A DNA stretch of 50,385 bases, from positions 1-50,385 of the forward strand of contig JAFVCQ010000233.1 of the NCBI GenBank assembly GCA_017479085.1, given 5' to 3'. This stretch comes from Lachnospiraceae bacterium (GTDB lineage: Bacteria > Bacillota > Clostridia > Lachnospirales > Lachnospiraceae). Numbering within the stretch: the first letter of the stretch is position 1; each line of letters starts with the position of its first letter. Made by a program: the position numbers and the translations under genes. The notes beneath the pieces were generated by a model that had not been told where the DNA came from, did no database searches, and saw nothing but the letters and a program-made list of their open reading frames with translations. Shown here in pieces: positions 1,263-27,741 of the stretch.

Positions 1263-2779
1263 TGGACGATCTTCTTATACAGGTCATTTCTGCCGTTGCC
1301 GCCCTCTCTATTCGATCGCACCACATAATCCTTCGTTCCGGATAAAATCCCGGTCAAAACCCCATGATAGAAATTCTCGTAATAATCGTGATAGCTGATA
1401 CACTCCTTCAACACCCGGTCAAGCTCCCTCTGGAAGGTCTCCCCATCACTGCCAAAGAACGCCCGAAGCAGCACTGTCCGGTCTCCATTCACCACCTCTT
1501 CATGGAACCAGTCCCGGATCTTGCTCTCAAAAATGTACCGCACCTCTTCATTCGGAATGGAAAGCGTCACATATCTTTGTCTTTTCTCTATCCGCATGCT
1601 CTCCATCTTGAAATAGCCGGTAAAGAACATAAAATTCCAGAGATTCTCTATTTTTTCATAAATCTCCCCATATGTGATATCCTCATGCACCGGTTTCTCC
1701 AACTGCATCCCATGAATCATCTGTTCAATCTCATCCTTTGTGTCCCGGTCTGCCCGGTTGATCATCTCCCGCACAATGCTGTTGGAGCTGCTGTTTGCCC
1801 AGTGGGCTTCCGGAAAGGCTTCCAGATCCGATAAATATTCATCGACCTGAAGGATCACGCTCCATGGATTATATACATTGGTATCTCCAAACCGGTAGCC
1901 ATTGTACCATTCCTTAATGCGCTCATAATGTTTATCCAGTCCATAGTATTCGCACATCGCCAAAACTTCCTGATCCGTAAAGCCAAAATACCCGGAATAC
2001 TGTTCATTTAAAATCGAATAAATTTTCAGATTTTTCATTCCGGTGAAAATACTCTCTTTCGAAACCCTGAGACATCCGGTCAGCACCGCAAATTCCAGAT
2101 ACGGATTCGTCTTTAACGCCGACTCAAACAGAGAGCGGATAAAACCGACCATACGGTCATAAAAGCCATTCAAATAAGCCGTCTCCAAAGGCACATCGTA
2201 CTCATCGATCAATAGGATGACCTTTTTTCCGTAACAGGTGTACAGACATTTCACCAAAAATGCGAGGGCGTCATTATACCCGGATTTGTCCTCCTCACAC
2301 ATCATAATCCGTTCAAACCGTTTTTTATATCTTTCAAGACGACCATTCTCCAGAATATATGCATGACGGTCATATTCGGATGCAAGCTGCTTCTTTATGG
2401 CATCAAAGGACTCCTCCCACGTATCCTGTTTTGCCCCCTTAAGCGTCAGGAAAATGACCGGATACTGTCCCTGATGCTTCATATATTCTTCCCCACAGGA
2501 GGCAATCTCCAAGCCGTCAAACAGATGCCGGTATTCCATCTTCTTCCCCGCAATATCCCAGCCATCCTCAAAGAAATACTGCAGCATGCTCATATTCAGC
2601 GTCTTACCAAACCGTCTCGGTCTGGTAAAAAGATTCACCTTCGCCCCTTGCTTTATCAAATCCCGGATCATAAATGTCTTATCTACATAGTACAGATTCT
2701 TTTCAATCACCTCACTAAAGTCATCATATCCCACCGGTAATGCTTTCATCACCTTCGGATCAAAAATACTCTCTGCCAT
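1196..2779 (-). CDS. AAA-ATPase-like protein (PF09820-type) with truncated PDDEXK_9 nuclease domain
   Basis: 527-aa ORF. YYVDKTFMIRDLI...LFTRPRRFGKTLNMSMLQYFF and LLIDEYDVP match the 'predicted AAA-ATPase' family. SD GAAGGTGGAG lies upstream. It is a paralog of 41490..43199, but about 50-55 aa of the C-terminal nuclease core are missing relative to that copy. Confidence 0.8.
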   Translation of the reverse strand: MAESIFDPKVMKALPVGYDDFSEVIEKNLYYVDKTFMIRDLIKQGAKVNLFTRPRRFGKTLNMSMLQYFFEDGWDIAGKKMEYRHLFDGLEIASCGEEYMKHQGQYPVIFLTLKGAKQDTWEESFDAIKKQLASEYDRHAYILENGRLERYKKRFERIMMCEEDKSGYNDALAFLVKCLYTCYGKKVILLIDEYDVPLETAYLNGFYDRMVGFIRSLFESALKTNPYLEFAVLTGCLRVSKESIFTGMKNLKIYSILNEQYSGYFGFTDQEVLAMCEYYGLDKHYERIKEWYNGYRFGDTNVYNPWSVILQVDEYLSDLEAFPEAHWANSSSNSIVREMINRADRDTKDEIEQMIHGMQLEKPVHEDITYGEIYEKIENLWNFMFFTGYFKMESMRIEKRQRYVTLSIPNEEVRYIFESKIRDWFHEEVVNGDRTVLLRAFFGSDGETFQRELDRVLKECISYHDYYENFYHGVLTGILSGTKDYVVRSNREGGNGRNDLYKKIVHYGIAFFGKDCLVKVAPADGAF

Positions 2780-2973
2780 ACAATTTCTCCACCTTCTTAG
2801 CGTTTTCCTAATGCTCGCAAACGAATTTAACTACCGAATCCAATCTCTCTCCGCCATATAAGACGATCATAGCATATCCGCGGGAATTTATCCACACATT
2901 CTTTTCAGCCTGTCATATACGAAAGACATATCATCCTTTTGAACGCATCGGCTGGTCCCAGTCAATTATTGTG

Positions 2974-3495
2974 TCAAAATTGGATATTCCCCTGATACAC
3001 ATCATCGAATTTCACAAAGGAAAACATACACTCGCCAATTGTGATAACATCCCTGTCCGCAAGAACCTCCACACCCTGAACCTCCCGGCCATTCACCAGA
3101 ACCTGTCTGTCCTGCTTTACCGGCATAATCTCAAAGCATCCCTTTTCATATAATATCTCCGCATGACCATTTCTTGAAACTGTATCCTCTCCCGGCAGGG
3201 ATACCTCCATATTGCCGGCGCGTCCAATGCGGTTCCTTCCCTCATACAAAATAAATGACCTTCCCACATCACGTCCCGATATCTCTACCAACACGCCCAC
3301 ATTTACCCGCATATTACGATCCTGCGCATTGGTATAGATTCTGCTTGCAGCTATCTCTGTCGGCACATCGGTCTGCCCCTGTCCGTATGTGTTCGGTTCC
3401 TGCTCCAGATTTCTCACGTTTCCCTGACAGTGCGGACAGCTTTTTAATTTATCTGCATCATATATATGACCATTTTTACATTTTATCATCTGCAT
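2974..3495 (-). CDS. Zinc-ribbon plus FHA domain protein
   Basis: Start moved to M47 of track ORF 2974..3633 (MQMIKCKNGHIYDADKLKSCPHCQ, a CxxH...CxxC ribbon; purine-rich SD upstream). The C-terminus has FHA hallmarks GRNRIGRA...VSRNGHAEI...VNGREV. Confidence 0.75.
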   Translation of the reverse strand: MQMIKCKNGHIYDADKLKSCPHCQGNVRNLEQEPNTYGQGQTDVPTEIAASRIYTNAQDRNMRVNVGVLVEISGRDVGRSFILYEGRNRIGRAGNMEVSLPGEDTVSRNGHAEILYEKGCFEIMPVKQDRQVLVNGREVQGVEVLADRDVITIGECMFSFVKFDDVYQGNIQF

Positions 3496-3647
3496 AGGAA
3501 AAGCTCTCTTTCTATATATTTTATAGCAAACGGTGGTGTGCCAGAAACTTAGCCAATCAGTCATTGCCCTTTGGACTCGACACTCTTGGGTTCGAGTCTC
3601 AAATAGACAAACCGGCTTGTCCGCCCGAAGCACGATATCAGAAATGG

Positions 3648-4355
3648 TTACATCAGCTTAAATGTCGTCACATCACCCGCAAGCTGCACCGTTTCTCCCA
3701 TCTCGACTTCATACCGCACATTCTGCTCTAACCGAATCTCTCCATTAATATAGGTACCATTCGTTGAAAAATCCGTAATCTCATAGCAGTCCTTGTCCTT
3801 ATGATAGATTATGCGCAAATGCCTGCGCGACACCCTCGGAAGATTGATCACAATATCGGCAAGCGTTCCATCCCGCCCAATAATAACCTCCTGCTCCGGT
3901 ATCAGATCAAACTGCTTTCCGGCATACAGTCCGCCGATGCATAACAGTCGTCCCATACTCTGCTCATTTTCTTCCGACAGATATGCTTTTTTTCCATTGT
4001 CCGGCTCATCCCGCCCGACAAGAATTTTCTTAGCCTTGTCCTTATATTTTCTGCTGATTCGAACCTCTTTCCCTGCCACAGTGAGCTTGTCCGACTGCAC
4101 AATGGAAACCTCAGACAGCTTTACAAGATAGCTCTGGTGACATCGTAAAAAACCTTTCGGTTCCAGCAGTTCCGCCACATGATCCATCTTGTCATTGTAT
4201 TCATACACCTCATCCCCCGTGTGAATGTACAGTTTATGCGCTCCGCTCTCTATATATGTAATCTCACTAACCGGTATCCGTAAAGTCTTCCCGCGCTTGA
4301 CCACACAAAACATCTGATCGCTATTATTATAACTGACCGCCATAATCTGTTCCAT
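3648..4355 (-). CDS. LytTR DNA-binding domain fused to a C-terminal FHA domain
   Basis: The N-terminal half RIPVSEITYIESGAHKLYIHTGDEVYEYNDKMDHVAELLEPKGFLRCHQSYLVKL is LytTR-like. The C-terminal half has VIIGRD...VSRRHLRI...STNGTYINGE, which is FHA-like. SD GGGGGAGAGG lies 7 nt upstream. The start is 17 nt after the kinase stop. Confidence 0.8.
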   Translation of the reverse strand: MEQIMAVSYNNSDQMFCVVKRGKTLRIPVSEITYIESGAHKLYIHTGDEVYEYNDKMDHVAELLEPKGFLRCHQSYLVKLSEVSIVQSDKLTVAGKEVRISRKYKDKAKKILVGRDEPDNGKKAYLSEENEQSMGRLLCIGGLYAGKQFDLIPEQEVIIGRDGTLADIVINLPRVSRRHLRIIYHKDKDCYEITDFSTNGTYINGEIRLEQNVRYEVEMGETVQLAGDVTTFKLM

Positions 4356-4372
4356 GATAGACCTCTCCCCCT

Positions 4373-5827
4373 CTAATATAACTCGTCATCATCATCGACC
4401 GTACTACCCCCGGTAGATGTTCCGCCCGAATTTCCGGCTGTGCTGTTTTTCGATTGCGCTTCTGTTCCGACAGGCACTCCACTTCCATTATTTTTTACAG
4501 AAGCGCCTTCCTCTCTCTCTTGTACACCTGTTTCTGTGTCAGCCGACGATCCGCTTTCGCTGTTCCCCGCGGAGGTGTTGTCCGCACCTTCCGTTACTCT
4601 GTCTCCTACACTGTCTGATGCGTTCTTTGCCTTTTCGCTTTGCTCACTGTCCGCCTCCATCTGCCCGTCTGTGGTATCATTTCCCACACCCTCTGAACCA
4701 GTCCATATACCGCTTGTTTCCTGTTCATCCGTCATCCAGATGCCACGCAGCAGGTAACTCATCCCAAAGCTCAGCAAAAGCAGGAGCAGACATGCTGTCA
4801 AAATATAAAACGTCGAATTTCTCTGCGATTGATTCCGGTCTGCCGGCTGACCGGAATACAGAACTCTCGTCCTGTCATCCATATATTCCGGCGCAAATGT
4901 AACCGCCTCCAGAAATTCATCCATTGCCGCATAGCGTTCAGACTTGTGAACCGCCATTCCCTTCAGCAATGCGTCTGTCTGCCACGTCTCCAATATATCC
5001 TCAAGGAGCTTTCTCTCATCATATACCAAATCCCCGCCTTGTACACTGTCTTCTCCTGCATCAGCCTTTCGAACTGTTCCGGCGCCACCTTTTCCATCTC
5101 TCATCCTGCGACTGTCGGCAAGTTCCCTCCCGTCCGCCTTCAGCCGTTCCACTGCATTGTGTGGTTTCTCTCCGGTCAGTGCCATAAACATTGTCGCTGC
5201 CAACGCATACACATCCGTCCATGCACCCAGCCTGCCGTCAAATGCACTTCCATCCGAATAATACTGCTCAATCGGCGCAAATCCCTGCTTCAGGATCACC
5301 GTCCGGTCACGATTTCTGTTCACAGACTGCGTTGCTCCAAAATCGATCAGACACAGGCGGTTATCCATGCCAATCATCAGATTATCCGGAGATATGTCAC
5401 AATGAATGACATTCCTTCGATGAATCTTGGTGAGCGACTTCATGATCGGCGTAACCATCCGGACCAGCTCATCCCATGAAAACGTACCATACTGCTTCAC
5501 ATATTCCCTCAATGTGATACCCTCAATAAAATCCATCACAATATAGGCCGTATCTCGTTCCTCAAACACATCCCGCACGGACACAATACCCTCAAGATAA
5601 TCGAACTCCCGCAGGATCTTTGCTTCGCGGATAAACCGCACTTTCTCATGTGCAACGTCCGTAGAGCCTCCAAGCGGAAAAAGTTCCTTAATCGCAACCG
5701 CCACATCCGTTTTCGTATCTCTTCCTCTATATGTAATTGCAAATCCGCCAGATCCAATCTCTCCTTCAATCCGATACCGGTCATGCAGCAGTGCATCTGA
5801 CTTCAGTTTTCTTCTCTTTTCACCCAT
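4373..5827 (-). CDS. Hanks-type Ser/Thr protein kinase, single TM helix, low-complexity extracytoplasmic tail
   Basis: Kinase motifs: GSGGFAITY (G-loop), VAIKEL (VAIK), HCDISPDNL (catalytic loop, non-RD), DFGAT (DFG), APIEQY (APE-like). A TM helix FYILTACLLLLLLSFGMSYLL is followed by a Ser/Gly/Thr/Glu-rich tail with no PASTA repeats. Confidence 0.9.
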   Translation of the reverse strand: MGEKRRKLKSDALLHDRYRIEGEIGSGGFAITYRGRDTKTDVAVAIKELFPLGGSTDVAHEKVRFIREAKILREFDYLEGIVSVRDVFEERDTAYIVMDFIEGITLREYVKQYGTFSWDELVRMVTPIMKSLTKIHRRNVIHCDISPDNLMIGMDNRLCLIDFGATQSVNRNRDRTVILKQGFAPIEQYYSDGSAFDGRLGAWTDVYALAATMFMALTGEKPHNAVERLKADGRELADSRRMRDGKGGAGTVRKADAGEDSVQGGDLVYDERKLLEDILETWQTDALLKGMAVHKSERYAAMDEFLEAVTFAPEYMDDRTRVLYSGQPADRNQSQRNSTFYILTACLLLLLLSFGMSYLLRGIWMTDEQETSGIWTGSEGVGNDTTDGQMEADSEQSEKAKNASDSVGDRVTEGADNTSAGNSESGSSADTETGVQEREEGASVKNNGSGVPVGTEAQSKNSTAGNSGGTSTGGSTVDDDDELY

Positions 5828-5941
5828 AATATATTCGTTTCGTAAAGGAAAATCACATTCGCAATAAAATGATTCTTATTCACCATGAATTCCGTCCGGC
5901 ATATAACAAAGACAAAGCACATGTGAGCCCAGAAAAACAAC

Positions 5942-8392
5942 TTAATATGTTACCTTCACTCCGGAATTTTTAAGGTATTGAATCATTTTTTTCTTCGATG
6001 TCTGCTTCTTCTTTAAATTTGCATCCGCCTTTTTTGTGCGAAGATAAAATGCCGCTGTCTCCACACTTTTTAAGTTCTTGATTTTCTTGAATGTAATCTT
6101 TGAAAGTTTTTTATCTCCATAAAATGCAAGTTTGCCGATCTCCTCCACATTTTTCCCAATCGTAAGTGTCTTAAGATTCGGACAATTATAAAATGCCTTT
6201 TCCCCAATCGAATTAACATTTGCGCCGATTGTGACAGTCTTCAGTTTCTTCATTCCCTTACAGGCGCCCTTCGCAACCACTGTCACCTTCAGTGTTTTTT
6301 CCCCATAAGGCACATTCTTTGGAATGGACACGGATGTCTTATCGTTTCTTACCGGCGCAACAAACGTAACCGATGTTTCATTTGCATTGACCTGATACTT
6401 CAGATTCCGATACGCGAACACCTTGCCGGCGATACTGTCATCCACAGAGCCATCCGAACCACCACCTGTCGTATTGGTGATACTCGTTTCATGAACCGAG
6501 TTGTCAACCACCACTATCGTGTTGGTAAAATGATCCATCACGGTTGCGTTGTTGGAATTGTCAACCACCGTCCTATCATCTGCACTGTCAGCCATCTCCT
6601 TGTCATCCGGACTGCCAGCTACCTCCTTGTCATCTGGACTGTCAGCTACCTCCTTGTCATCTGGACTGTCAGCTACCTCCTTGTCATCCGGATCATCGTT
6701 ACCTGTCGTATCGTCGGAACCGCCAATCACTGTCGTATTGGTGGAGTTGTCAATCACCGTTGTATTAGTGGAATTGTCAATCACTGTCGTATTAGTGGAG
6801 TTGTCAATCACCGTTGTATTAGTGGAATTGTCAATCACTGTCGTATTAGTGGAATTGTCAATCACTGTTGTGTTGATATTGTTCGTGATGCTGACCGTTC
6901 CCTCATAGATATCCTGCATCCCCTTCATATATGTCTGATAGGAGGGTACTTCATTCTCATCTAAATAATTCTGCACGTCACCTCCCGCAAGTACGCGCAG
7001 AGTCACATACTCAAGCTCCAGCAGGCCAAAGCCTGATATATCCGTCATCTTCTCCGGCACGGTAAGCACAATCTTATCTCCGCTTGAATCACTGTTGATC
7101 ATAAATGCATCCTGCCCTATTGTCGTTAAATTCTCTGGAAGAATGACACGGTCAAGTCCTTTTGCATACTTAAATGCACGATCTCCGATCGTAGTAACCG
7201 ACTTCGGTATATTGATCTCCGTCAGTGCCGGACAGGAATGAAAACAATGCTTTTCCAGTGTTTCTAACGTGTCCGGCAGTGCAACACTTGACAACCGGGG
7301 ACATTCCTGAAACGCTGCAATCCCAATCGTCTTTGCACCTGTGATCGTTACGCTTTCCAACTGCGAACATTTGCAACAGACACCATATGGTATTTCCTTT
7401 AACGAAGATGGAAAATAGATCGTCTTTATCGCAGTTGTAAAAAATGCCTGATTTCCAAGACGGACAAGTCCTGTTCCCTGAATATCCACTTTCGTCAGAT
7501 TGCTGCAAAGCGCAAAGGCGCATTCTCCAATCTGCGTCACACTGGATGGAATACTGACCGATGTCAGTTTCGACGATGTGTCATCGCCTCCGGTTGCATT
7601 TCCACAAAATGCCCAGTCTGCAATGGCATCCACCGACTGTGGGATCGTTACGTCTCCCTCTGCCGTTATACCATCAATCAGAATCCGGTTCACAATAACA
7701 AGTCCCTGTGACGCCTGCTCCCGTTTTGCCGCCAGCCACGGAGTACGTCGAAACGCTCTGTTCCCGATTGACACAACCGACTTCGGTATATTGATCTCTT
7801 CAAGCTGCACATCGTTGTAAAACGCACTCTCCCCGATTGTGGTAAGCGTATCCGGCAGACTGACACCTTTGAACCCTGATGTATAGAAGCACCTCTGATA
7901 AATGGTGTCAACCCCTTCCGGCACAACAACAAGATCATACGCACCAAGATTGTTCAATCCGCACTGCGATTCCTCAAACTCATCTGCGTTCAAATTCACA
8001 TACTGTTCCTCATACGGATTGCCGATTCCCGTCACCTTATGCCCGTCAATCTTGGAAGGGATGTTGAAGTTTATCTTCTCCGTTCCATCCTCTGTTGTCC
8101 ATGTCTCAAGTCCCTCCGGTGCATCACCCGTCCAGTCCATGGCACGTCCCACGATTACAATGTCCCCTCCATCCTCTATCCCGCTGTCGATCCAACTGCG
8201 GTATGCATAGTACCAGAAACGGTTCTCACTTCTGTATATCCCCTGTGGGAGTTCATTCTCCTCACTCTCTGCGGCATATGTCACAGGTATCCCTGACAGA
8301 TTGCACACATATAAAGCGGCAAGCAACATCAAGACAGCCATCACAAAAAACCGGCCTCCCACACTCCGTTTTCCCGTTTGTTCCACCCTCAT
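5942..8392 (-). CDS. Secreted BspA-type leucine-rich-repeat (LRR_5-like) surface protein with internal tandem repeats
   Basis: 816 aa. Signal-like N-terminus FFVMAVLMLLAALYV. There are many units of the type IP.SV..IG..AF..C..L. A central low-complexity block holds NSTNTTVID x5-6 and DSPDDKEVA x4. SD GGAGGATACGGATATG. Confidence 0.85.
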   Translation of the reverse strand: MRVEQTGKRSVGGRFFVMAVLMLLAALYVCNLSGIPVTYAAESEENELPQGIYRSENRFWYYAYRSWIDSGIEDGGDIVIVGRAMDWTGDAPEGLETWTTEDGTEKINFNIPSKIDGHKVTGIGNPYEEQYVNLNADEFEESQCGLNNLGAYDLVVVPEGVDTIYQRCFYTSGFKGVSLPDTLTTIGESAFYNDVQLEEINIPKSVVSIGNRAFRRTPWLAAKREQASQGLVIVNRILIDGITAEGDVTIPQSVDAIADWAFCGNATGGDDTSSKLTSVSIPSSVTQIGECAFALCSNLTKVDIQGTGLVRLGNQAFFTTAIKTIYFPSSLKEIPYGVCCKCSQLESVTITGAKTIGIAAFQECPRLSSVALPDTLETLEKHCFHSCPALTEINIPKSVTTIGDRAFKYAKGLDRVILPENLTTIGQDAFMINSDSSGDKIVLTVPEKMTDISGFGLLELEYVTLRVLAGGDVQNYLDENEVPSYQTYMKGMQDIYEGTVSITNNINTTVIDNSTNTTVIDNSTNTTVIDNSTNTTVIDNSTNTTVIDNSTNTTVIGGSDDTTGNDDPDDKEVADSPDDKEVADSPDDKEVAGSPDDKEMADSADDRTVVDNSNNATVMDHFTNTIVVVDNSVHETSITNTTGGGSDGSVDDSIAGKVFAYRNLKYQVNANETSVTFVAPVRNDKTSVSIPKNVPYGEKTLKVTVVAKGACKGMKKLKTVTIGANVNSIGEKAFYNCPNLKTLTIGKNVEEIGKLAFYGDKKLSKITFKKIKNLKSVETAAFYLRTKKADANLKKKQTSKKKMIQYLKNSGVKVTY
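6585..6692. repeat. Four in-frame 27-nt tandem repeats (encode DSPDDKEVA on the minus strand)
   Basis: The unit ctgtcagctacctccttgtcatctgga is repeated head-to-tail four times with 1-3 substitutions per unit. Confidence 0.95.
6724..6885. repeat. About six in-frame 27-nt tandem repeats (encode NSTNTTVID on the minus strand)
   Basis: The unit caatcac(c/t)gt(t/c)gtattagtgga(a/g)ttgt is repeated head-to-tail. The last unit is degenerate, and more diverged copies continue at about 6490-6580. Confidence 0.9.
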
Positions 8393-8442
8393 ATCCGTAT
8401 CCTCCGATCGTAATCACTGTGTAAATTGACTCTTTTTGGGAA

Positions 8443-8470
8443 AGTATACCACAACTACGGATAAAGTCAA
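8443..8470 (-). promoter_or_regulatory. Sigma-70-type promoter for the LRR / kinase / FHA gene string
   Basis: The minus strand reads TTGACT-16 nt-TATACT, with TG one nt upstream of the -10 (extended -10). It lies about 50 nt upstream of the LRR start codon. Confidence 0.55.
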
Positions 8471-8485
8471 TAACCTCGCTACAAG

Positions 8486-8553
8486 CTGTGGAATCTGTTC
8501 ACCCTGCCAGCCAATCTCTCTGGCAAACTCCACAATATCCTCTGCCATTCCGC
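8486..8553. repeat. 68-bp direct repeat, copy 1 (partner at 18044..18111)
   Basis: ctgtggaatctgttcAccctgccagccaatctctcTggcaaactccacaatatcctctgccattccgc matches the second copy at 66 of 68 positions, in the same orientation. Confidence 0.9.
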
Positions 8554-8727
8554 CTCTTCCTCATTCTCTGGGATGTCAATACGCTCAATCTTGAAAATGA
8601 CCGGGCGCGTCCCGTCGTTGCAGCAGGCTATCATCATCCGGTCATCATTTGTCCATCCTTGCATGATGGAGCCGCCCTGCAATGCCGTATATACATATCG
8701 GCTGACAGCGTCCCATGCTTCACCGCC

Positions 8728-9453
8728 TCATAAATCTTCACTTTTCATTACGCTATGCATAGCCACGCCCTCTGGTCTGAAATCCATCTGCACTTCCCAG
8801 AACTCAACGCCTCCCTCTGACGCTTCTCTAATGGTACGGGAAACCTCCTCAAAATGGGTTGAGCGCAGACGTTCCTTTCTCTCCGTAATGCAGTACTGGT
8901 AGACCTGCAGAAAAACTGCCCGTTCATGCTCTTTCAATGACTCCGCCAGCTCATTCACATGCTTTACCATGCGATCCGTGGATGAGAACGGTTTAGGCGG
9001 AAGCGTCCTGATGTTGGCTCCGTATTTCACATTGATGGTCGTCAACGGAGTCTTGACCTCAAGATAGGTGTCGCCCACCTTGAAATCAAGTTTCGATATT
9101 CCCAGCTTTACTTCCCGCTGTATGTCATCGAAGTCAGATACGATCTGATCCAGTTCATGCTCCCGGAAGAAGTGCTCTACGAGGCGGTTGGAAAGAATCT
9201 GGTTTATTCCTATCCAGTTATCATCATCCGACAGAAGCACCGCCTCGATGTCATATTTTAGTTTGCGCTTCGGATCATCATGGAAGGACAAAAGGCATGG
9301 CAGATTCTTGTTCTCAACATCACCAATGCGGTTCGTGGTTGGGATGTGCGCCACAAACTGCTGTCCATCTACTTCCACAGTCGCTGTGAACTGGGAGTTT
9401 CTTTTTATCATCACGCCTCTGATCAAGGGACTTTCAAACCTGTATATACTCAT
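8728..9453 (-). CDS. sfsA: SfsA-family protein (sugar fermentation stimulation / nuclease-like)
   Basis: 241 aa. IKRNSQFTATVEVDGQQFVAHIPTTNRIG...WIGINQILSNRLV...SKLDFKVGDTYLEVKT follows the SfsA pattern (KRF.A.V...G....aHc.NTG...; SR.DF....y.EVK). Confidence 0.7.
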   Translation of the reverse strand: MSIYRFESPLIRGVMIKRNSQFTATVEVDGQQFVAHIPTTNRIGDVENKNLPCLLSFHDDPKRKLKYDIEAVLLSDDDNWIGINQILSNRLVEHFFREHELDQIVSDFDDIQREVKLGISKLDFKVGDTYLEVKTPLTTINVKYGANIRTLPPKPFSSTDRMVKHVNELAESLKEHERAVFLQVYQYCITERKERLRSTHFEEVSRTIREASEGGVEFWEVQMDFRPEGVAMHSVMKSEDL

Positions 9454-12815: not shown

Positions 12816-13784
12816 TCACGGTTCTTGTTTTCGTTCTACTGTGATCCTGATATTCCCGGTGTCGGTGGTTATCTCACAGCGACCTCCGGTAATTGTCTTT
12901 GGCACATCAACACTGCCTGTATCAGTTTCAACAATAAACACTTTGTCAGTAAGCAATGTTCCTGTCACAGTTCCCGTGTCTGTACTAACATATATTGTTC
13001 CTGCATCACAGTGGTTAAATTCTATGTTGCCGGTATCTCTTTCAAGGTTAAACTCATCGGAAGCAATAACGTTTGTCATGTTCAAACTACCGGTATCACC
13101 ATCCGAAGCAAAATTCCTGCACGAAACATTATTCATGACCACTCTGCCAGTGCCTTCGGTAATACTAATATTCTCCTCAAGCTCAACATCAGATATATCC
13201 ATTCCCCCGGTATCCGATATGAGAATCATGCCAGACGCCGACAATTCAGCTATTGCTATATGCCCAGTATCTGTACTCACAGAAATATCTCCGGATACGG
13301 ATGCCTTACAGCTGATATTTCCGGTATCAAGCTTTACATCAATGCCCTCAAACGAGAAGTCGCCCGGTATCAAAACGCTTCCTGTATCACCATCTACGGT
13401 TAGGGTTCCATAATGACTATTTGGCAAATACACCGTAATCTCCGGGCTGTCCATGATAATACCCACGTTCCATTTCCATTTTTTTGACCTGACAATAGAC
13501 AAGGTATCACCCTGTATCTTGACTTCGTGCGGATCGCCTTCCTCTTCATAGCACACCACCCTGCACTTCCCATCCTCTGACAGGACAAAAGTGATATCCT
13601 CAATATCGGCACTAATGGCAATGTCTTTAAAGTCATCTCCGACATCATATGTGTTTGTTACATACTGTACCGTACTGAGTCTTTTAAAATCAAAGCCCAA
13701 AACGGCAACTGTAATAAAGCAAACAAGCACTCCTGATCCAAGCAGTATGAATGCAGCCGTAATCCATTTCTTACCCCTGCTCAT
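12816..13784 (-). CDS. DUF4097-family beta-strand repeat protein with N-terminal TM anchor
   Basis: TM helix ITAAFILLGSGVLVCFITVAVLGF, followed by many repeats of the type (S/T)DTG(N/S/H)I.... Confidence 0.8.
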   Translation of the reverse strand: MSRGKKWITAAFILLGSGVLVCFITVAVLGFDFKRLSTVQYVTNTYDVGDDFKDIAISADIEDITFVLSEDGKCRVVCYEEEGDPHEVKIQGDTLSIVRSKKWKWNVGIIMDSPEITVYLPNSHYGTLTVDGDTGSVLIPGDFSFEGIDVKLDTGNISCKASVSGDISVSTDTGHIAIAELSASGMILISDTGGMDISDVELEENISITEGTGRVVMNNVSCRNFASDGDTGSLNMTNVIASDEFNLERDTGNIEFNHCDAGTIYVSTDTGTVTGTLLTDKVFIVETDTGSVDVPKTITGGRCEITTDTGNIRITVERKQEP

Positions 13785-13787
13785 TGT

Positions 13788-14384
13788 TTATGCCTCCCTT
13801 CCGACAAGCGAAGATTTTATACCCAAAAGTATCCTCTTCGACAATTTCAAAATCGCTTTTGTAATCCATTTGCTCGCAAAAAACAATAGTATTGCGCCAC
13901 CGCCACAGGCTAAAACCATTCCAATTGCAAAAAAAATGCCAGCAAAGTTTCCTGCTCCACAATAAAGCATAATACTTATCACGCCAGATATGATCCCGAC
14001 CATCATTGACAAGTCCGCCACATAGACACAGATCACCGCTGTCCAAATCACAATATAAATAGCAATAACAACTATCACTGCCGCCAAAGCCAACGGAATC
14101 CAAACAGGCGAACCAATCACCAACAGCACGATCTCCCACGCTCTCAGGTTTCTCTTAGGCTTTACTTTCTCCTTTACGAGCTTGGCAAGAGGCGTTTCTG
14201 ACATTATTTGTTCAATGACAGAATCAACAGAACCGATCTCCGCAACAGCCTCTTCTTCCGTAATACCATCTTCCATTCGATCAACGATCATTTCCTCATA
14301 AAATGAGAGTCGTTCATCTATATCTTCCTGAGGTAATCCTGACAGACGTTTTCCCAATCCTGTCAAAAACTCTTCTCTATTCAT
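13788..14384 (-). CDS. DUF1700-family membrane protein
   Basis: Start set at MNREEFLTGLGKRLSGLPQEDIDERLSFYEEMI, the canonical DUF1700 N-terminus, which overlaps the PadR stop. The C-terminal half is multi-TM. Confidence 0.8.
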   Translation of the reverse strand: MNREEFLTGLGKRLSGLPQEDIDERLSFYEEMIVDRMEDGITEEEAVAEIGSVDSVIEQIMSETPLAKLVKEKVKPKRNLRAWEIVLLVIGSPVWIPLALAAVIVVIAIYIVIWTAVICVYVADLSMMVGIISGVISIMLYCGAGNFAGIFFAIGMVLACGGGAILLFFASKWITKAILKLSKRILLGIKSSLVGREA

Positions 14385-14697
14385 GGCCTGCATCCTCCCT
14401 TGTGATAAAGTTGTATATGGAAAGAATCTCTTTCCAGTCCTCTCTAAATTCCTCGATACGGTCCAGTCCTCGATCTGTGATGTGATAATATTTCCGAAGC
14501 CTTCCATTATGTTCGACGGATTTGACCACAAGCATCTCTGCTGTTTCAAGGCGTTTAAGGATGGTATATAGCGTAGATTCCGACAATTCCAGATATGGCT
14601 TCATATCCTTAATGATCTGATATCCATAGGAATCTTCATTTTTTATTGCAGCCAGAACACACACATCTAGTAGTCCGCGCTTTAACTGAATATCCAT
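14377..14697 (-). CDS. PadR-family transcriptional regulator
   Basis: LLDVCVLAAIKNEDSYGYQIIKDM...SESTLYTILKRLETAEMLV...RKYYHITDRG is a PadR winged helix. Confidence 0.9.
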   Translation of the reverse strand: MDIQLKRGLLDVCVLAAIKNEDSYGYQIIKDMKPYLELSESTLYTILKRLETAEMLVVKSVEHNGRLRKYYHITDRGLDRIEEFREDWKEILSIYNFITREDAGHE

Positions 14698-16507: not shown

Positions 16508-16849
16508 TTATGTCTTCTTGCTTAGCGAACCAAGCACGATCTCATACGCCTTATCCAACAAATCCTTTAGGAGATCACCCGGCACTTCTCCGTCCGCCCT
16601 TATCGAATTCCAATGTGTCTTGTTCATATAGTAACCGGGAATGATATCCTCATACTGCTTTCGCAGGAAATCTCCCTCCATCGGATCAAGCTTCAAAGTG
16701 ATGTAATATGGATTACCGTCAGAGTCCATACAGACAGCAGCAAACATTTTCGCGCCTACCTGATAGCGCATCCAGTTCCAGTCTTTTTGCAAATCCTTAG
16801 TAACACCCGGCTTTCCTTTCAAGTATTCATCAATCCCAGCATATTTCAT
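16508..16849 (-). CDS. MmcQ/YjbR-family DNA-binding protein
   Basis: KPGVTKDLQKDWNWMRYQVGAKMFAAV...YITLKLDPMEGDFL...PGYYMNKTHWNSI matches the YjbR pattern. Confidence 0.75.
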   Translation of the reverse strand: MKYAGIDEYLKGKPGVTKDLQKDWNWMRYQVGAKMFAAVCMDSDGNPYYITLKLDPMEGDFLRKQYEDIIPGYYMNKTHWNSIRADGEVPGDLLKDLLDKAYEIVLGSLSKKT

Positions 16850-17262
16850 TTGTCCTTTCCTCCATAGGTTATTCTCATGGTCTCAGCTACTTTCAACAGA
16901 TTTTCTCGAACCTCTTTCGGTTCCAACACCTCCACCTTTTCTCCAAAGGTAAGTATCCAGACGAGCAGATTCTCCATGTCAGTATAATCAGCGGAAAATA
17001 AAAGCTTTCCTTCCTCTGTCTCCACATAGCAATGTGGTCCAAATTCTTCCACCAGCCTCCACTTCACTTCCGGAGCAAACAGGGCTTTGACCATGATACC
17101 GTCTGGAAATATCCTCTCATTTGACAAATCCGGCATCGGAACTTCACGACATTCAAATTCCGTATCCAGGACAGCCACCTTATCCATCCGGTTCAGCTTG
17201 AACAGACGGAAAGTCATGACCACTGGCTCTGCCGGTGGTTTGCGGAAGCCCCTCCGGGGCAT
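16846..17262 (-). pseudogene. C-terminal fragment of a WYL-domain (YafY-like) transcriptional regulator
   Basis: TFRLFKLNRMDKVAVLDTEF resembles the R.FRL.RI end of a WYL domain. It is followed by a WCX-like C-terminal domain (LLVWILTFGEKVEVLEPKEVRE). The HTH and most of the WYL domain are missing. The ORF begins exactly at the IS200 end. Confidence 0.55.
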
Positions 17263-18188: not shown

Positions 18189-20300
18189 TTATTTCTGAAT
18201 CTTAACCGTCTTTACCTTACTCCACGTTCCATAGACCTTCTTGCCCGTCGAATCCCCGGTATATGCCCGCACTCTCACATAGTACGTCCTACCTTTTTTC
18301 AGATTCTTCACGGTCAGGGTAAGCTTGTCTGTGGTCTTTGTCTTCTTGCTCTTGGTGAACTTCCTGTTAAGTGCATACTGCACTTCGTATCCCCCCGCTT
18401 TCTTTACCTTCTTCCATCTGATAACGATTGCTTTTTTCTTGCTGTTCTTCGCGGAGCTTATTGTTACCTTGGCTGGTTTGGTAACCGTCTGTTCAGTCGT
18501 GCCTGTCTGTTCAACTACAGCGGTCTGTCCGGCAGCAGGCGTCTGTCCGGCAGCAGAGGCATCTGCGTTACCGTTGGAATGATTGGCTCCGGCATCACCG
18601 TTGGCATTGTTATTTGCTTCGTCAGAATTGTTATCCTGGCTGCTGTCATTGTCACCGGAGGTATTATTGTCACCGTCCTCTTCCTTTATCGAAAGCGGAT
18701 CAGATACCTGAAAGCTTTCCAAATTCTGTGCCACGGACAGATCAATATGTAAAGCCGGACGCACGGCATGAATTCCTTTACAGTAAGCATTTTCTCCACC
18801 GACATCTACATTACCTTCAGCGAACACATTCGCCGCCTTATAACTGTTAGAACCGGGTGATCTCAGCCACCATGAGCTGTTATTGTTCTCCTCCCGTTTT
18901 GCATCGTTCATATATGCATAATCCGTTGCCTTCACCTCTCTTGTCACGCTATGATCTCCTAACTTTACCTCAAATCCATATGCGCTGTCAGATACTTCCG
19001 CTAAGGATAACAGATACACCTTATCACTGGTGATATTTCCGCCTTCCGTATGAGTGTAGGGATTGTTATCATTTACAACACTCGTTGTCTTAATTGCAGC
19101 CTGTTCCGCATCGGTAAAGGCAGTATTGATAAATGATTCACTATCCCCTGTATCATTTAGCCATGTACGCAGTGTACTCGTCTCCCATGTCACATCCGTA
19201 TCAGTATCATTATACGGCTTGCAATCCAGCACTTGATCCGCAAGCAGAAAGGCGTCATCCCCATCCACAGAAAGAACCCTCCACGTAATCGGTTTTTCCC
19301 TGTAAGAAACATTATTCTGTTTGTAGTTTCCAAAGTATACACAGTCCCATGTGGTAACATCCCCGTTCGCAACGGGATTTCCATATTCACTTGTGGAAGT
19401 CCTTGGTGCTTCCGCTTTGTCAGCCTTCCCATTCGATGTTATCGTTCCCGCATCCGTGAGAATTCCAGAGGACAGTAATTCATCGGAGAATTTGACATGC
19501 AGAGCAGGGCGCACAGCACTACATAAATTGAAATTAGACATATTCAGACCATCGTATAACACTACCTCCACACAATAATTGTCGGCACCGGGAGAACGCA
19601 GCAGCCAACAGCAACTTGTCTCGATTCCCCCTCCCCAACCTGAACCACGGACCGTACCATTCATATGTGCATAATCCGTTGCTGCTGCCATTCTTGTCGC
19701 CCATGGATAGGCAGAATACTTATTAAATCCATATGCTTCGCTTGACGCTTCCTCTATGGACAACAGATATACCTTGTCTTTCGTGTCATTCCCTCCCTCC
19801 GTATCATACTCGGGGTTGTTGTTATTTACAACGGTTGTCTCTATGATTGCAGACTGTTCATCCTGAGTAAATGCAGTATTGATAAATGATTCACTATCCT
19901 CTGTGTCATTCAGCCATGTGCGCAGTGTACTCGTCTCCCATGTGCAGGAATAAGAATCCCTAATGAGATTCTCATCTTCATCCCACTCCTCTACTCCGTT
20001 CGTGTTATATGGCTTGTTGTCGAGTGCCTCATCTGCGAGCAAAAAAACATCATCTCCATCAATCGACAGAATCCTCCACTTAATCGGTTCCGTCTTAAAT
20101 TCTTCCACATCCTGATAATACCTCCCAAACTGCACCATATCCCACGTCACCGTTCCATCTCCGGCAATCCGGGGACTGCTGATGTTATTGGATGCCGCTT
20201 GGACTTTCAGCGTGCTTCCCGCCACTCCCGAAAATGCCGTCAATGCCATGACAGCCGCCGACAGCATCGCAAATCCCTGCTTCCAATTCTTTTTCCTCAT
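18189..20300 (-). CDS. Secreted protein with two DUF6273-like domains, a low-complexity linker and a C-terminal fibronectin type III-like domain
   Basis: Signal peptide MRKKNWKQGFAMLSAAVMALTAFSGVAGS...AAS. There are two copies of the pattern I(K/T)WR(I/V)LS(I/V)DGDD.FLLAD..LD.KPYN...TWETSTLRTWLND...FINTAFT..EQ.AI...V...DKVYLLS..E...WLLRSPG...VRPALH. The C-terminus ends in GYEVQYALNRKF...YYVRVRAYT. Confidence 0.75.
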   Translation of the reverse strand: MRKKNWKQGFAMLSAAVMALTAFSGVAGSTLKVQAASNNISSPRIAGDGTVTWDMVQFGRYYQDVEEFKTEPIKWRILSIDGDDVFLLADEALDNKPYNTNGVEEWDEDENLIRDSYSCTWETSTLRTWLNDTEDSESFINTAFTQDEQSAIIETTVVNNNNPEYDTEGGNDTKDKVYLLSIEEASSEAYGFNKYSAYPWATRMAAATDYAHMNGTVRGSGWGGGIETSCCWLLRSPGADNYCVEVVLYDGLNMSNFNLCSAVRPALHVKFSDELLSSGILTDAGTITSNGKADKAEAPRTSTSEYGNPVANGDVTTWDCVYFGNYKQNNVSYREKPITWRVLSVDGDDAFLLADQVLDCKPYNDTDTDVTWETSTLRTWLNDTGDSESFINTAFTDAEQAAIKTTSVVNDNNPYTHTEGGNITSDKVYLLSLAEVSDSAYGFEVKLGDHSVTREVKATDYAYMNDAKREENNNSSWWLRSPGSNSYKAANVFAEGNVDVGGENAYCKGIHAVRPALHIDLSVAQNLESFQVSDPLSIKEEDGDNNTSGDNDSSQDNNSDEANNNANGDAGANHSNGNADASAAGQTPAAGQTAVVEQTGTTEQTVTKPAKVTISSAKNSKKKAIVIRWKKVKKAGGYEVQYALNRKFTKSKKTKTTDKLTLTVKNLKKGRTYYVRVRAYTGDSTGKKVYGTWSKVKTVKIQK

Positions 20301-20426
20301 TTTCTTATCCTCCTCTAAACACTTTTAAATGAATACCCCCTTGATATAACCAGACTCTGCCAAAAGAATTCCGGTAATCATAAGAGATTGTATCAAAGCT
20401 CCATTTCATATTACCACTTTTTTCAC

Positions 20427-20475
20427 ACAAAAAAAGCCGCTAACCAAAAATAACACAGTTAGCGACAAAATTAAC
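20427..20475. repeat. Imperfect direct repeat flanking the TIR operon, promoter-distal copy (partner 27693..27741)
   Basis: acaaaaaaagCcgCtaaccaaaaataacacAGttagcgacaaaattaac matches the partner at 45 of 49 positions. Weaker similarity extends to 20401. It contains the hairpin cgctaac-N13-gttagcg. Confidence 0.85.
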
Positions 20476-20565
20476 CAAATTTTCTCAAGCTTTTTTGAAA
20501 AACCTTCTCTATTGCAGCTTTGCCGGTCCCCGCTTTCCGCAGCAGAGCTGCGGAAAATGGGATTC

Positions 20566-22740
20566 TCATTCAGCTCTTTTTTCATCTAACCGGTAGATTC
20601 GAAGACCATCATACAGCTTCAGAAGCTCCAGCATACACTCTAACGGTTCCTTATCCTTGCCTTGTTCACCTTTTGGAAGATTATAATAATTTTCTTCTGC
20701 CTCCTCCTGACTGATGACACCATCCTGCACGACCATGTTCCATTTGTCCTTCGGAATCATACAGAAATGCTGTCTTTTTCTTTCCCGTTCATCCCCTTTG
20801 AGCTTCTCATACTTTTTCTTTGTCCTTCCGTCCTCCGTCACAGTCTCACCGGTATAGCCGGTTCCGCACCATCCCATCTCATACTGCCGCTCAAGCCACC
20901 GGTAATGCTCTGCCGGAGCCATGGTTTCTATGTCATCGGAAGTGAATTCCTTTACAATATCATAATCGACCGAACGATCCGTATAAAAACACCCGATCTC
21001 ATTCAAAAGCTTTGCAAACCCCTTCGCCTGCGCAATATTAGACAGCTTATATTCTAGCGACAGCTTCTCGAATTCTGTTTCAAACTCCCTCTCATGCTGC
21101 TGTGCATATTCTACAATCCGATTCTCCTTTTTTGCTCTCTCCCATTCCGTATCATTCCGGGTATATTTCTCAAAATCCTTGCTATACAGAAGTCCCCACC
21201 GGGCATTTAGCACAACCGCAAAGTTATACAGATGAATGAAATTGCTGTCTGACAGATATGTCCGCTTTCTGCTGTTGTTCCGCTTTCTGCATTCCGTCTC
21301 TACCTGCAGGCAGATTCTGTCACCGCTCTTCTTTTGTGTATCAATGTCAATAATGCGTGCGATGTCCTTCTCAAAATCCCCGCTGCGAAAATCCCCATAT
21401 GCTTTTAGTCTTGGTTTCTCTGCCTTCTTCCCATCTTTACTCCGTTCCTGTGAAACTGCCTTTTGATACTCCGCATCAAATTCGTCCATCTTATGCTTTT
21501 CTTCCTGGTCAAACATATAGGTCGCATATATCACACTGCCCTCAAATACGAACTCGCAATCCATCGGGTGCAGCTCCGTACGGGAATTTCTTCCATAGCT
21601 CGTTCTGTCCCATACCTGCAGCTCATCGCACAGCATTAGCATATATGCCAACGGGTGCAGCTCCGGCTTCAACGGAATATTAACTGCGTCCTTATAAAAT
21701 GCTACACAGAATTTGTACAGGCTGTTATGCAGTATGATCGCTGTCAAAGCATCCACCGTAGCGCAGTCTACTTCAAGATTCAATTCCTCAAACAGCTTCT
21801 TGAACAGAATGGTCGCACTGAAATAGCCATGATCCATAAAATTGCCAAATGCATCCGGATGCACCGGTTTGCGCATCAGGATATCCCGCATGGACTCTCT
21901 TGAAAAGCAGTATGTTTCGGAAAGCTTATTGGCCAGATCGAATGCAAACAGATCATTGGTATCGTGAAAGATAACCTCCTGCATGCGATAGCGTCCATCC
22001 TTCGCATACAGTCTTGCCAGCCTGCGCTTTAAATCCTCATCAATACGGATATAATCCTCCAACTGCCGATATGCGAGGAACGGCTTGCCTGCACGCTTTT
22101 GCTTATCCACTTCAAAATAAGACGCTACCTGCTCAAACGGAAGCTCAAACGGATATCCGATATCATGAAACAGAGAAGCAAGGCCCCAGTAATGCAGAAA
22201 ATGGTGTGCTGCTTCTTCTCCCGCCTTTCTCTGTCCCTCATAGAATCTCTGATAAACCTTGCGGTATGCCGCATTCGATTCATAGATCGCAAGCCCAAGC
22301 AAAAATACATAGACCGAATGGGAGTAATGATCCCTGTGCTTCATCAAAAGGGAACTTCCGTTATTCTCAAATTCCGAGAGAAGCTCCACCATACGCCTGC
22401 TTTGCTCATAGCCGCCAAGGAACATCTCCATAAAACAGAAATACACATCAAAGGCATCCTCCCTTGTACCGGATTCCAGAAAATGTCTTGCTGCATTTTC
22501 CAGACAAAGCCGGTCTATATCCATCTCCATATTGTACGGAATCTGATTCTGCCTGATACTGCTGCCAAGCATTTTTCCATCTGTGTTTTCCTTGATCATC
22601 TTATCTGTATCATAGCGCAGATTTTCACATGTCTTATACAGGAAGCGGAGTGCTGCCCCCTGTAAACCGTTCTGTTTCTCTGTCGCCGGACTATGCTCTA
22701 ATATATGTCCGTCAGCATCCTTCAACATATTGTATGCCAT
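20566..22740 (-). CDS. HD-domain phosphohydrolase fused to C-terminal RyR-like repeat(s)
   Basis: Start set at MAYNMLKD (SD GGGAGGATAACAGG), 19 nt after the upstream stop. HD motifs: KHRDHYSHSVYVFLLGLAIY, LASLFHDIGYPFELPFE, ILHNSLYKF, MLMLCDELQVWDR. The C-terminus APAEHYRWLERQYEMGW...RKRQHFCMIP...YYNLPKGEQGKDKEPLECMLELLK fits the RyR-domain pattern. A weaker copy precedes it (NFAVVLNARWG...LSLEYKLSNIAQAKGFAKLLNEIG). Confidence 0.6.
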   Translation of the reverse strand: MAYNMLKDADGHILEHSPATEKQNGLQGAALRFLYKTCENLRYDTDKMIKENTDGKMLGSSIRQNQIPYNMEMDIDRLCLENAARHFLESGTREDAFDVYFCFMEMFLGGYEQSRRMVELLSEFENNGSSLLMKHRDHYSHSVYVFLLGLAIYESNAAYRKVYQRFYEGQRKAGEEAAHHFLHYWGLASLFHDIGYPFELPFEQVASYFEVDKQKRAGKPFLAYRQLEDYIRIDEDLKRRLARLYAKDGRYRMQEVIFHDTNDLFAFDLANKLSETYCFSRESMRDILMRKPVHPDAFGNFMDHGYFSATILFKKLFEELNLEVDCATVDALTAIILHNSLYKFCVAFYKDAVNIPLKPELHPLAYMLMLCDELQVWDRTSYGRNSRTELHPMDCEFVFEGSVIYATYMFDQEEKHKMDEFDAEYQKAVSQERSKDGKKAEKPRLKAYGDFRSGDFEKDIARIIDIDTQKKSGDRICLQVETECRKRNNSRKRTYLSDSNFIHLYNFAVVLNARWGLLYSKDFEKYTRNDTEWERAKKENRIVEYAQQHEREFETEFEKLSLEYKLSNIAQAKGFAKLLNEIGCFYTDRSVDYDIVKEFTSDDIETMAPAEHYRWLERQYEMGWCGTGYTGETVTEDGRTKKKYEKLKGDERERKRQHFCMIPKDKWNMVVQDGVISQEEAEENYYNLPKGEQGKDKEPLECMLELLKLYDGLRIYRLDEKRAE

Positions 22741-22759
22741 CCTGTTATCCTCCCGATTC

Positions 22760-24235: not shown

Positions 24236-24356
24236 GTCCTTTTTTTCCAAACGGTTTTCCCTCCCCAATCCACATAACGTTCCTGCCACAGATCCGATCT
24301 GCGGTATCATGCATACCGGCATCCCACCAGTGTCAGCCTCCGTTGCGCCAACACAT

Positions 24357-25580: not shown

Positions 25581-25595
25581 ACTGTACTCTCCTGA

Positions 25596-27692: not shown

Positions 27693-27741
27693 ACAAAAAA
27701 AGACGTTAACCAAAAATAACACGATTAGCGACAAAATTAAC
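27693..27741. repeat. Imperfect direct repeat flanking the TIR operon, promoter-proximal copy (partner 20427..20475)
   Basis: acaaaaaaagAcgTtaaccaaaaataacacGAttagcgacaaaattaac is followed by an extra partial unit, acagttagcggcaaaatcaac, to about 27767. Weaker similarity extends back to 27672. Confidence 0.85.

Follow-up and report, generated by a model that had tools for sequence, protein, structure and literature searches.

The DNA stretch analyzed here, a Lachnospiraceae sequence of 50,385 nt from a gut metagenome (the whole stretch is called the window below), carries on its minus strand genes for a BspA-type leucine-rich repeat (LRR) protein, a membrane Hanks Ser/Thr kinase, a regulator in which a LytTR DNA-binding domain is fused to an FHA domain (LytTR-FHA) and a small FHA protein with a Zn motif (Table 1). 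These four conserved genes are read here as a dedicated phosphothreonine (pThr) signalling module of gut and rumen Lachnospiraceae, and we put the probability of this reading, with the relay proposed below, at roughly 0.55. A previous inspection of the letters alone (the sequence-only reading) had described the kinase and the two FHA genes as three co-oriented, adjacent genes with small gaps and had proposed that the kinase signals to the LytTR protein in one step. The layout was borne out, with gaps of 17 nt and 152 nt. A pathway read through pThr also remains the best reading, but the one-step route is doubtful and Thr46 of the small FHA protein points to a relay of two steps.

Conservation and origin of the gene module

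Genomes were scanned at one per species, which yielded 56 loci with a fused LytTR and FHA open reading frame (ORF), almost all of them from Lachnospiraceae and related Clostridia of gut and rumen. The kinase, the small FHA protein and receiver (REC) domains were called at these loci by local hidden Markov model searches. A profile search of 1.84 billion representatives returned 53 clusters at E<=1e-30, of which approximately 48 span both domains. The LytTR-FHA family is real but small; a first word-index search, which gave approximately 30 clusters and made the fusion look extremely rare, is superseded by the profile search and the genome scan.

The linkage of the fusion to a kinase, already suspected by the sequence-only reading, is tight. 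A kinase gene lies within 4 kb of the fusion at 51 of the 56 loci, two of the exceptions being located at contig ends, and the small FHA gene is present at 45. Among 11 neighbourhoods of homologues (30-65% identity), both the kinase and the small FHA gene adjoin the fusion in 10, and the flanks are unrelated. As the module is kept in more than 50 genomes, chance adjacency is excluded. Its gene order is regulator-FHA-kinase at 38 loci, regulator-kinase-FHA at five and kinase-regulator-FHA, the type of the window, at two. The LRR gene had been noted for its position upstream of the three genes and for its promoter. The position is correct, but the gene is not a mere neighbour: a BspA-type (LRR_5-like) gene is found within 1 kb of the module at 41/56 loci, compared to 1/24 control loci with plain LytTR regulators, which makes it a conserved fourth component. 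The LRR protein of the window is 39-48% identical to those of loci L004, L006 and L018.

The sequence-only reading placed the FHA domain where LytTR regulators usually have a receiver, and this view had to be given up. The FHA domain is a C-terminal addition, and 32 of the 56 relatives are REC-LytTR-FHA proteins with a strong REC match (acceptor Asp, T/S and Lys are all retained in their 31 distinct sequences). At nine loci, including all five with the order regulator-kinase-FHA, the REC domain is degenerate and lacks the acidic pair as well as T/S and Lys; 15 loci, the window among them, are without REC. In distant genomes REC-LytTR and an FHA protein of approximately 130 aa are encoded by separate adjacent genes, which is evidence for fusion or fission. 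This split form was found at L066, L071, L076, L078, L081-L084, L087 and L089 (the latter from the cultured Butyribacter intestini TF01-11), in clusters with two to four Hanks kinase genes as well as genes for PP2C phosphatases and additional FHA proteins. As most relatives have the REC-LytTR-FHA form and the distant genomes the split genes, sequence comparison indicates that the FHA domain is an added C-terminal input and that the loss of REC, in parallel with the loss of PASTA repeats, is secondary in the lineage of the window. Intact, degenerate and lost REC domains thereby form a natural series for the takeover of a two-component regulator by Ser/Thr signalling.

Several further observations concern the distribution of the module. 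Some genomes carry three or four paralogous modules on different contigs (L022/L028/L047/L059, L020/L036/L062, L026/L041/L043 and L029/L052/L070). An extra stand-alone LytTR protein of 130-200 aa, with neither REC nor FHA, adjoins several modules (Table 1). L003 is a variant form of the L001 contig and carries a gene for a large serine recombinase (2817-4739) immediately upstream of the 719-aa gene, which is present there as a truncated copy; the site next to the module thus seems to vary.

Conserved residues of the fusion, the small FHA protein and the kinase

Both domains of the LytTR-FHA protein were confirmed by Pfam, profile and Foldseek searches. The LytTR match covers residues 23-112 (PF04397, E 1e-18, 67.7 bits against a cut-off of 22.6) and the FHA match residues 157-225 (PF00498, E 1.6e-13, 51.3 bits against 20.7). 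Profile matches of the LytTR part include AgrA (3bs1, 5e-10), ComE and 3d6w. Foldseek likewise returned 3d6w (target TM 0.76) and ComE (4cbv) for the LytTR side, and CT664 (3gqs, target TM 0.89), OdhI, GarA, EmbR and DgcB for the FHA side; 6i2p is also among the fold matches of the fusion. With the assignments upheld by profile and fold and the kinase linkage tight, the two observations on which the sequence-only reading had made its proposal dependent both stand. The AlphaFold model of the fusion has a mean pLDDT of 82 and shows folded domains at residues 15-114 (pLDDT 85-92, the LytTR part) and 135-235; the linker (residues 114-132) is disordered and the orientation of the domains to each other is not fixed (pTM 0.46).

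The LytTR signature is FhRhHRS, and in the FFRCHNS version of AgrA the residues R198, N201 and S202 contact DNA (PMC4227749). The FLRCHQS motif of the window aligns with that of AgrA, and R71, C72, H73, Q74 and S75 are invariant among 30 LytTR-FHA sequences, as are G160, R161, S176, H179, N199 and G200, the residues of the FHA domain that correspond to pThr binding (G-R, S-x-x-H and N-G). The same alignment contains no conserved Thr outside the folded domains. No REC match was obtained for the window protein, which begins approximately 14 residues before its LytTR domain, and no other LytTR protein is encoded in the window. A single database name came up, the generic 'LytTR family transcriptional regulator DNA-binding domain-containing protein'.

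The ORF of the small FHA protein extends over 2974-3633, and the ATG at 3495 (MQMIKCKNGH) is the start common to all orthologues. The FHA domain is matched at E 1e-7 (6e-8 and 33.4 bits against 20.7 if read from the 3495 start). The N-terminal zinc ribbon of the sequence-only reading fared less well than the FHA domain. The motif C-x3-H-x9-C-P-x-C is invariant among 53 orthologues (C6, H10, C20, P21 and C23), but all Pfam zinc-ribbon models remained below threshold on this protein (DUF7129 at 1e-3, Zn_ribbon_8 and Zn_ribbon_9 at 0.03), so that the invariant CHCC motif is what carries the zinc-ribbon call. Q41 (96%) and T46 (98%) are conserved in these orthologues within an otherwise variable linker. 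Conservation in the FHA domain is 100% for G91-R92, 96% for S107, R108 and H111 and 94% for N135; the loop has one residue more than S-x-x-H (S-R-x-x-H), and no conserved Gly follows the Asn. In the AlphaFold model the FHA domain is confident (residues 64-164), the linker (24-63, pLDDT <50), which includes T46, is disordered, and the N-terminus is poorly modelled as two short hairpins.

The kinase was correctly described as a non-RD (HCD) membrane Hanks kinase with a low-complexity tail in place of PASTA repeats. The Pkinase domain covers residues 18-230 (Pfam, E 9e-31, 107.7 bits against a cut-off of 31.7) and is followed by a single transmembrane helix and 124 low-complexity residues. The catalytic set is intact, with the GSGGFA Gly loop, K47 of VAIK, D144, N149 and D162-F-G. 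The HCD at residues 142-144 is HRD in most orthologues. The catalytic-loop Lys is replaced by Ser in 50 of 51 kinase orthologues, which share the sequence H-x-D-I-S-P-x-N (H[RCY]DISP[DEG]N). The best solved relative is PpkA, a type VI secretion system (T6SS) kinase (5hnv, 1.4e-29), which has an HRDISxDN-type loop, GFAPIEQY and WTD[IV]YALGA in common with the window kinase when the two are aligned; the first two of these signatures are also found in 50/51 orthologues. As PpkA and the orthologues share the Lys to Ser change, it is a trait of the subfamily and not the mark of a dead kinase. Activation-loop Thr176 is kept in 98% of the orthologues, in the context pT-x-x-L (T-V-I-L-K in the window).

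The window kinase reached 152.5 bits with the PASTA-kinase equivalog NF033483, whose cut-off is 450. A single PASTA-like repeat is present in 32 of the 51 orthologues, and none in the kinases of the window and its clade. Nearly all kinases end in an acidic-aromatic peptide, which is DDDDELY in the window and DDGYTTIHLD or DFYLDD elsewhere. This kind of tail, an acidic run followed by an aromatic and aliphatic motif, was also seen in L019-L077 and could be a docking peptide. The PADLOC matches of the kinase (PD-T4-6 and mad6) cover only the generic kinase domain and were rejected as evidence for a role in defence; zero PADLOC matches were obtained for the LytTR-FHA, small FHA and LRR proteins.

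Promoter, predicted operators and target genes

The LRR gene is separated from the kinase gene by 114 nt, and a ribosome-binding site (AGGGGGAG) precedes the LytTR-FHA gene, which starts 17 nt behind the kinase stop codon. The gap of 152 nt before the small FHA gene is unusually long; its predicted folding was no better than that of shuffled sequences (z -0.19), and an Rfam search of 2700-8800 gave zero family matches. The highest-ranking sigma-70-like match in the region 2600-8800 lies upstream of the LRR gene, and no minus-strand terminator was found from the LRR gene down to the final FHA gene (to 2974). This promoter is likely to drive the four-gene unit in this genome, which makes the earlier idea that the kinase and FHA genes share the LRR promoter plausible, and by its looks the module appears to be constitutively expressed from it. 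A search for RNA runs that contain the window gave none.

Two sets of 9-bp direct repeats with a 21-bp period are predicted to be operators of LytTR-FHA in the window. Both have the same layout, in which approximately 10 nt separate the last half-site from a poor -35 position and another 17 nt lie between this position and the -10 element. LytTR operators have been described as 9-bp direct repeats 12 bp apart, located about 10 bp upstream of the -35 element (PMC6193735). The repeat GGTTAATTTTGTCGCTAAC-T-GGTTAATT was found at a 21-bp period in every member of the clade of the window, and a TG-extended -10 element follows each copy at a fixed distance. A position weight matrix scan located it only twice in the window (50 and 44 bits), the next-best site scoring 10 bits. 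In L020 the repeat heads the module operon (268-aa protein, LRR, LRR, kinase, regulator, FHA), and it also heads the operon containing the module in L001 and, weakly, in L006. L004 and L018 have it immediately upstream of the kinase gene, and L004 a further time downstream of the module.

The search was extended to the family by analyzing the 350 nt upstream of the regulator gene at 54 loci. Direct repeats with 9/10 or better matches were present at period 21 in 10 of them, while all other periods from 11 to 40 were seen at 0-3 loci each and shuffled sequences gave 0.67. The half-sites resemble ATGTAAGAATTA; where the period is 20, they read TTGTACAAGT. In L022, L077, L030, L034, L062 and L064 the locus-specific repeat occurs again before neighbouring LRR genes. 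The GGTTAATTT operator type is present in all six members of the clade of the window and nowhere else, and a TGTACA type in five of the eight members of another clade and at one locus elsewhere. As the operator type tracks the LytTR-FHA tree and LytTR-FHA is the sole LytTR protein of the window, we infer that the repeats belong to this regulator.

Other candidate sites were not retained. A degenerate operator copy (GTTGTTTTTCTGGGCTCAC) at the start of the gap between the LRR and kinase genes scores below the listed matrix hits and is not claimed. A metagenome scan with the 17-mer of the operator matched at least 120 environmental contigs, apparently by chance; among the matches listed, six contigs had a second half-site by a loose 6-of-9 criterion and none showed the tandem GGTTAATT architecture.

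The triple repeat lies upstream of four tightly packed genes (20566-27419, minus strand), which encode a TIR_2 protein, two nucleases or nuclease-like proteins and a 734-aa protein and look like a defence island. The 734-aa protein is 40-42% identical to proteins encoded beside TIR_2 genes that, in L001 and L018, lie inside the module or adjoin it. The double repeat is located upstream of a gene for a secreted DUF6273-fn3 protein. DUF6273/fn3 proteins also adjoin the module in L087, L068, L073, L031 and L021.

It is distinctly unlikely, though worth weighing, that the two window repeats are bound by another regulator and that LytTR-FHA has other targets or none. The predicted targets are located 15-22 kb from the module, no operator was found at the module itself in the matrix scan, and the window encodes further regulators (two of the OmpR type, one AraC and one GntR) that could own these sites, whose assignment to LytTR-FHA draws on co-occurrence and architecture. 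Against such a regulator speaks the arrangement of 9-bp repeats with a 21-bp period at 10 nt from the -35 position, which is a LytTR signature in a window with one LytTR protein, as well as the presence of the same 18-mer at the module operons of L001, L004, L018, L020 and, weakly, L006 and the match between operator type and LytTR-FHA phylogeny.

Proposed relay and comparison with known systems

In the relay favoured here, an envelope or surface signal would activate the kinase. Sensing would be the task of the single PASTA repeat in most relatives and, in the clade of the window, of the low-complexity outer tail with its conserved acidic-aromatic end. The kinase would autophosphorylate Thr176, and the FHA domains could dock on this pThr in the manner of GarA, which docks on the activation loop of PknB (6i2p). 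The docked small FHA protein would then be phosphorylated at Thr46 of its linker, and the canonical FHA domain of LytTR-FHA would read a pThr, most likely pT46 and otherwise pT176; an FHA domain that reads a phosphorylated tail is known from DgcB. Reading of the pThr would drive cooperative assembly of the LytTR domains on the 9-bp direct repeats spaced by 12 bp, and promoters with an extended -10 but no good -35 element would thereby be switched on. The targets in relatives would be the module's own operon, creating positive feedback, and adjacent genes for LRR or other surface proteins; in the window they would be the TIR/nuclease operon and the DUF6273-fn3 gene. A two-step relay through the small FHA protein is considered more likely than the one-step route because T46 of the small protein is the only near-invariant Thr in a disordered region.

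Several points weigh against this relay, in addition to those raised above for the operators. Consistent with the sequence-only reading, no PP2C motif was found in any frame of the window, and a PP2C gene lies within 10 kb of the fusion at only 2/56 loci, which leaves the reversal of the signal without an explanation; the probe used at the loci was a B. subtilis PrpC sequence, which does find the PP2Cs of the distant clusters, and the negatives at the loci are less certain than those of a Pfam scan. L001, a close relative, has the LytTR-FHA and small FHA genes and no kinase at the locus. Given the intact REC of most relatives, His-Asp input may still dominate there. LytTR-FHA has no conserved Thr of its own and may never be a kinase substrate, and the extra loop residue of the small FHA protein may mean that its domain does not bind pThr. 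Finally, the window kinase is of the non-RD type, and non-RD kinases elsewhere are associated with independence from activation-loop phosphorylation.

EmbR of Mycobacterium tuberculosis, controlled by PknH, is the textbook example of a Hanks kinase acting on a transcription factor with an FHA domain, and the principle as such is known already. To our knowledge very few bacterial cases of transcription control by Hanks kinases through FHA domains have been described. EmbR resembles LytTR-FHA in its C-terminal FHA domain, whose fold (2ff4) is matched by that of the fusion, and in its control by a membrane Hanks kinase. However, its DNA-binding part is a SARP/OmpR-type winged helix with BTAD and not LytTR, neither a small FHA partner nor a linked LRR gene is present, and the system belongs to another phylum. 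LytTR regulators are known to be driven by receivers or by membrane inhibitors. No published account of a LytTR-FHA protein was found when the literature was searched for LytTR and FHA together, and its new elements are an output through LytTR, a small Zn-motif FHA protein as obligatory partner, linkage to an LRR gene and predicted operators. The family unites a dedicated kinase, a reader and an adaptor with a LytTR output in abundant but poorly studied Lachnospiraceae of gut and rumen, and could provide compact pThr-responsive parts for synthetic biology.

A Hanks kinase is also known to control a LytTR regulator by Thr phosphorylation in Streptococcus pneumoniae, where StkP phosphorylates ComE at Thr128 and thereby increases its dimerisation and DNA binding (PMC6010298). 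ComE lacks an FHA domain, and its receiver is the direct target of a housekeeping PASTA kinase whose gene lies elsewhere, whereas the window module has a dedicated adjacent kinase and a regulator that carries its own pThr reader. HdrRM and BrsRM are another comparison: their LytTR proteins are without REC, share a transcript with a membrane protein and control their own expression through 9-bp repeats (PMC6193735). Their partner is a small membrane inhibitor and FHA domains are absent; the partner in the window is a 484-aa kinase, most LytTR-FHA relatives still carry REC, and operators at the module are found in relatives and not in the window.

By analogy with HdrM and BrsM, membrane partners that hold REC-less LytTR regulators, the pThr of the kinase might tether LytTR-FHA at the membrane and off the DNA, and the small FHA protein might compete for this site and release the regulator. 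Such a sequestration is unlikely, yet it would place the module in a known class (PMC6193735), two FHA proteins facing one conserved kinase pThr site (T176) would fit a competition and the window module has a seemingly constitutive promoter. It leaves the near-invariant T46 of the small protein without a role, while the autoregulatory operators of relatives suggest an activating feed-forward signal, and L001 works without a linked kinase.

The small FHA protein has the layout of ArnA of the Sulfolobales, in which a zinc ribbon and a flexible loop precede a C-terminal FHA domain and which controls transcription together with a phosphorylated partner within the ArnA/ArnB/ArnC-D system (PMC10470591). 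ArnA differs in being archaeal and in having a vWA partner, and the sequences are similar in the FHA domain only (5a8i, E 2e-5 to the LytTR-FHA profile). GarA and OdhI are likewise small FHA proteins with the phospho-acceptor Thr in a disordered N-terminal segment and a matching fold; they lack a Zn motif and act on metabolic enzymes, and the match to the OdhI NCBIfam model is weak (22.6 against a family cut-off of 200 bits).

The PpkA-Fha pair of T6SS shares the kinase subfamily (HRDISxDN, GFAPIEQY) and the FHA protein partner with the window module. Its output is the assembly of a secretion machine in Gram-negative bacteria, together with the phosphatase PppA, in contrast to the DNA-binding output of the window module, which lacks T6SS and phosphatase genes. 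This likeness raises the question of whether the kinase and the FHA proteins might control export, anchoring or assembly of the LRR protein post-translationally, with LytTR restricted to autoregulation. Such surface-protein handling is improbable and the least credible of the alternatives weighed here. It would agree with PpkA being the closest solved relative of the kinase, with matches of both FHA domains to the Yop-YscD_cpl model, with the LRR gene adjacent at 41/56 loci and with the conserved extracellular C-terminal peptide of the kinase. It is opposed by the neighbourhoods examined, which contain no T6SS or other secretion-apparatus genes, by the fusion of a canonical FHA domain to a DNA-binding domain in >50 species and by operators before LRR genes, which point to transcriptional control.

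An extended version of the transcriptional relay would regard the LRR protein as an extracellular sensor that engages the kinase tail, as in a split receptor kinase, and the FHA relay as the activator of surface-protein genes and the TIR/nuclease operon. We consider this version very doubtful; if true, LRR, Ser/Thr kinase and TIR components would be connected in one bacterial circuit with inducible transcriptional control. The relay without this extension could itself be a means for commensals to regulate their candidate adhesins of the BspA surface-protein type, and possibly an instance in which an inducible activator controls a defence-like TIR operon.

Table 1. Coordinates of the module genes, their domains and motifs, promoter and operator elements, and predicted target genes in the window, with stand-alone LytTR genes of other loci
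Feature	Position	Strand	Remarks
BspA-type LRR surface or secreted protein, 816 aa, signal peptide	5942-8392	-	LRR_5, E 9e-69 (Pfam)
Single-pass membrane Hanks Ser/Thr kinase, PpkA-like subfamily, 484 aa	4373-5827	-	Pkinase profile
LytTR-FHA fusion, 235 aa	3648-4355	-	Pfam, AlphaFold model, Foldseek
Small Zn-motif FHA protein, 173 aa	2974-3495	-	Pfam FHA, start shared by orthologues
Kinase catalytic loop HCDISPDN	5381-5404	-	
Kinase activation-loop Thr176	5300-5302	-	
Kinase transmembrane helix, residues 340-360	4748-4810	-	
Kinase C-terminal DDDDELY, low-complexity outer part	4376-4396	-	
LytTR domain of fusion	4014-4313	-	
LytTR motif FLRCHQS	4131-4145	-	Coordinates for RCHQS
FHA domain of fusion	3651-3953	-	G160-R161, S176-x-x-H179, N199-G200 intact
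CHCC motif of small FHA protein	3427-3480	-	
T46 codon of small FHA protein	3358-3360	-	
FHA domain of small protein, divergent	3004-3306	-	
Sigma-70-like promoter upstream of LRR gene, TTGACT-16-TATACT with TG	8443-8470	-	10/12 matches
Predicted LytTR operator, three 9-bp half-sites GGTTGATTT, TGTTAATTT, TGTTATTTT, 21-bp period	27713-27763	-	44 bits
TG-extended -10 TAAAAT	27674-27679	-	33 nt beyond operator 27713-27763
Predicted LytTR operator, two half-sites GGTTAATTT, TGTTATTTT, 21-bp period	20447-20476	-	50 bits
TG-extended -10 TAATAT	20408-20413	-	33 nt beyond operator 20447-20476
TIR_2 protein, 607 aa	25596-27419	-	
PDDEXK_4 protein	24357-25580	-	PADLOC candidate PDC-S26, 3e-32
DUF2779 protein, Cas4-like nuclease	22760-24367	-	
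734-aa protein	20566-22770	-	Weak HD and RyR matches
Secreted DUF6273+fn3 protein	18189-20300	-	Behind double repeat 20447-20476
Stand-alone LytTR gene, L015	7870-8400		
Stand-alone LytTR gene, L056	7229-7624		
Stand-alone LytTR gene, L069	14548-15126		
Stand-alone LytTR gene, L070	3109-3645		
Stand-alone LytTR gene, L073	15395-16003		

A few other features of the window were recorded. Within the LRR gene, two arrays of 27-nt tandem repeats (6576-6871) encode repeats of DNSTNTTVI and DSPDDKEVA, and L019 has similar 21-nt repeats in its LRR gene, as has L001 near its module. Two paralogous PF09820 genes ('predicted AAA-ATPase') are present on the minus strand at 1196-2779 and 41490-43241; one is located directly downstream of the module, and the one at 41490-43241 has a PDDEXK_9 nuclease domain in addition. 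A 195-aa ORF at 30592-31179 (minus strand) contains a CdiA C-terminal toxin domain (E 1e-18) without the large CdiA body. The minus-strand regions 12816-14549 and 16846-17262 encode a HAAS-domain protein paired with a toastrack (DUF4097) protein and, in a separate short ORF, a WCX domain, the C-terminal part of WYL-type regulators.

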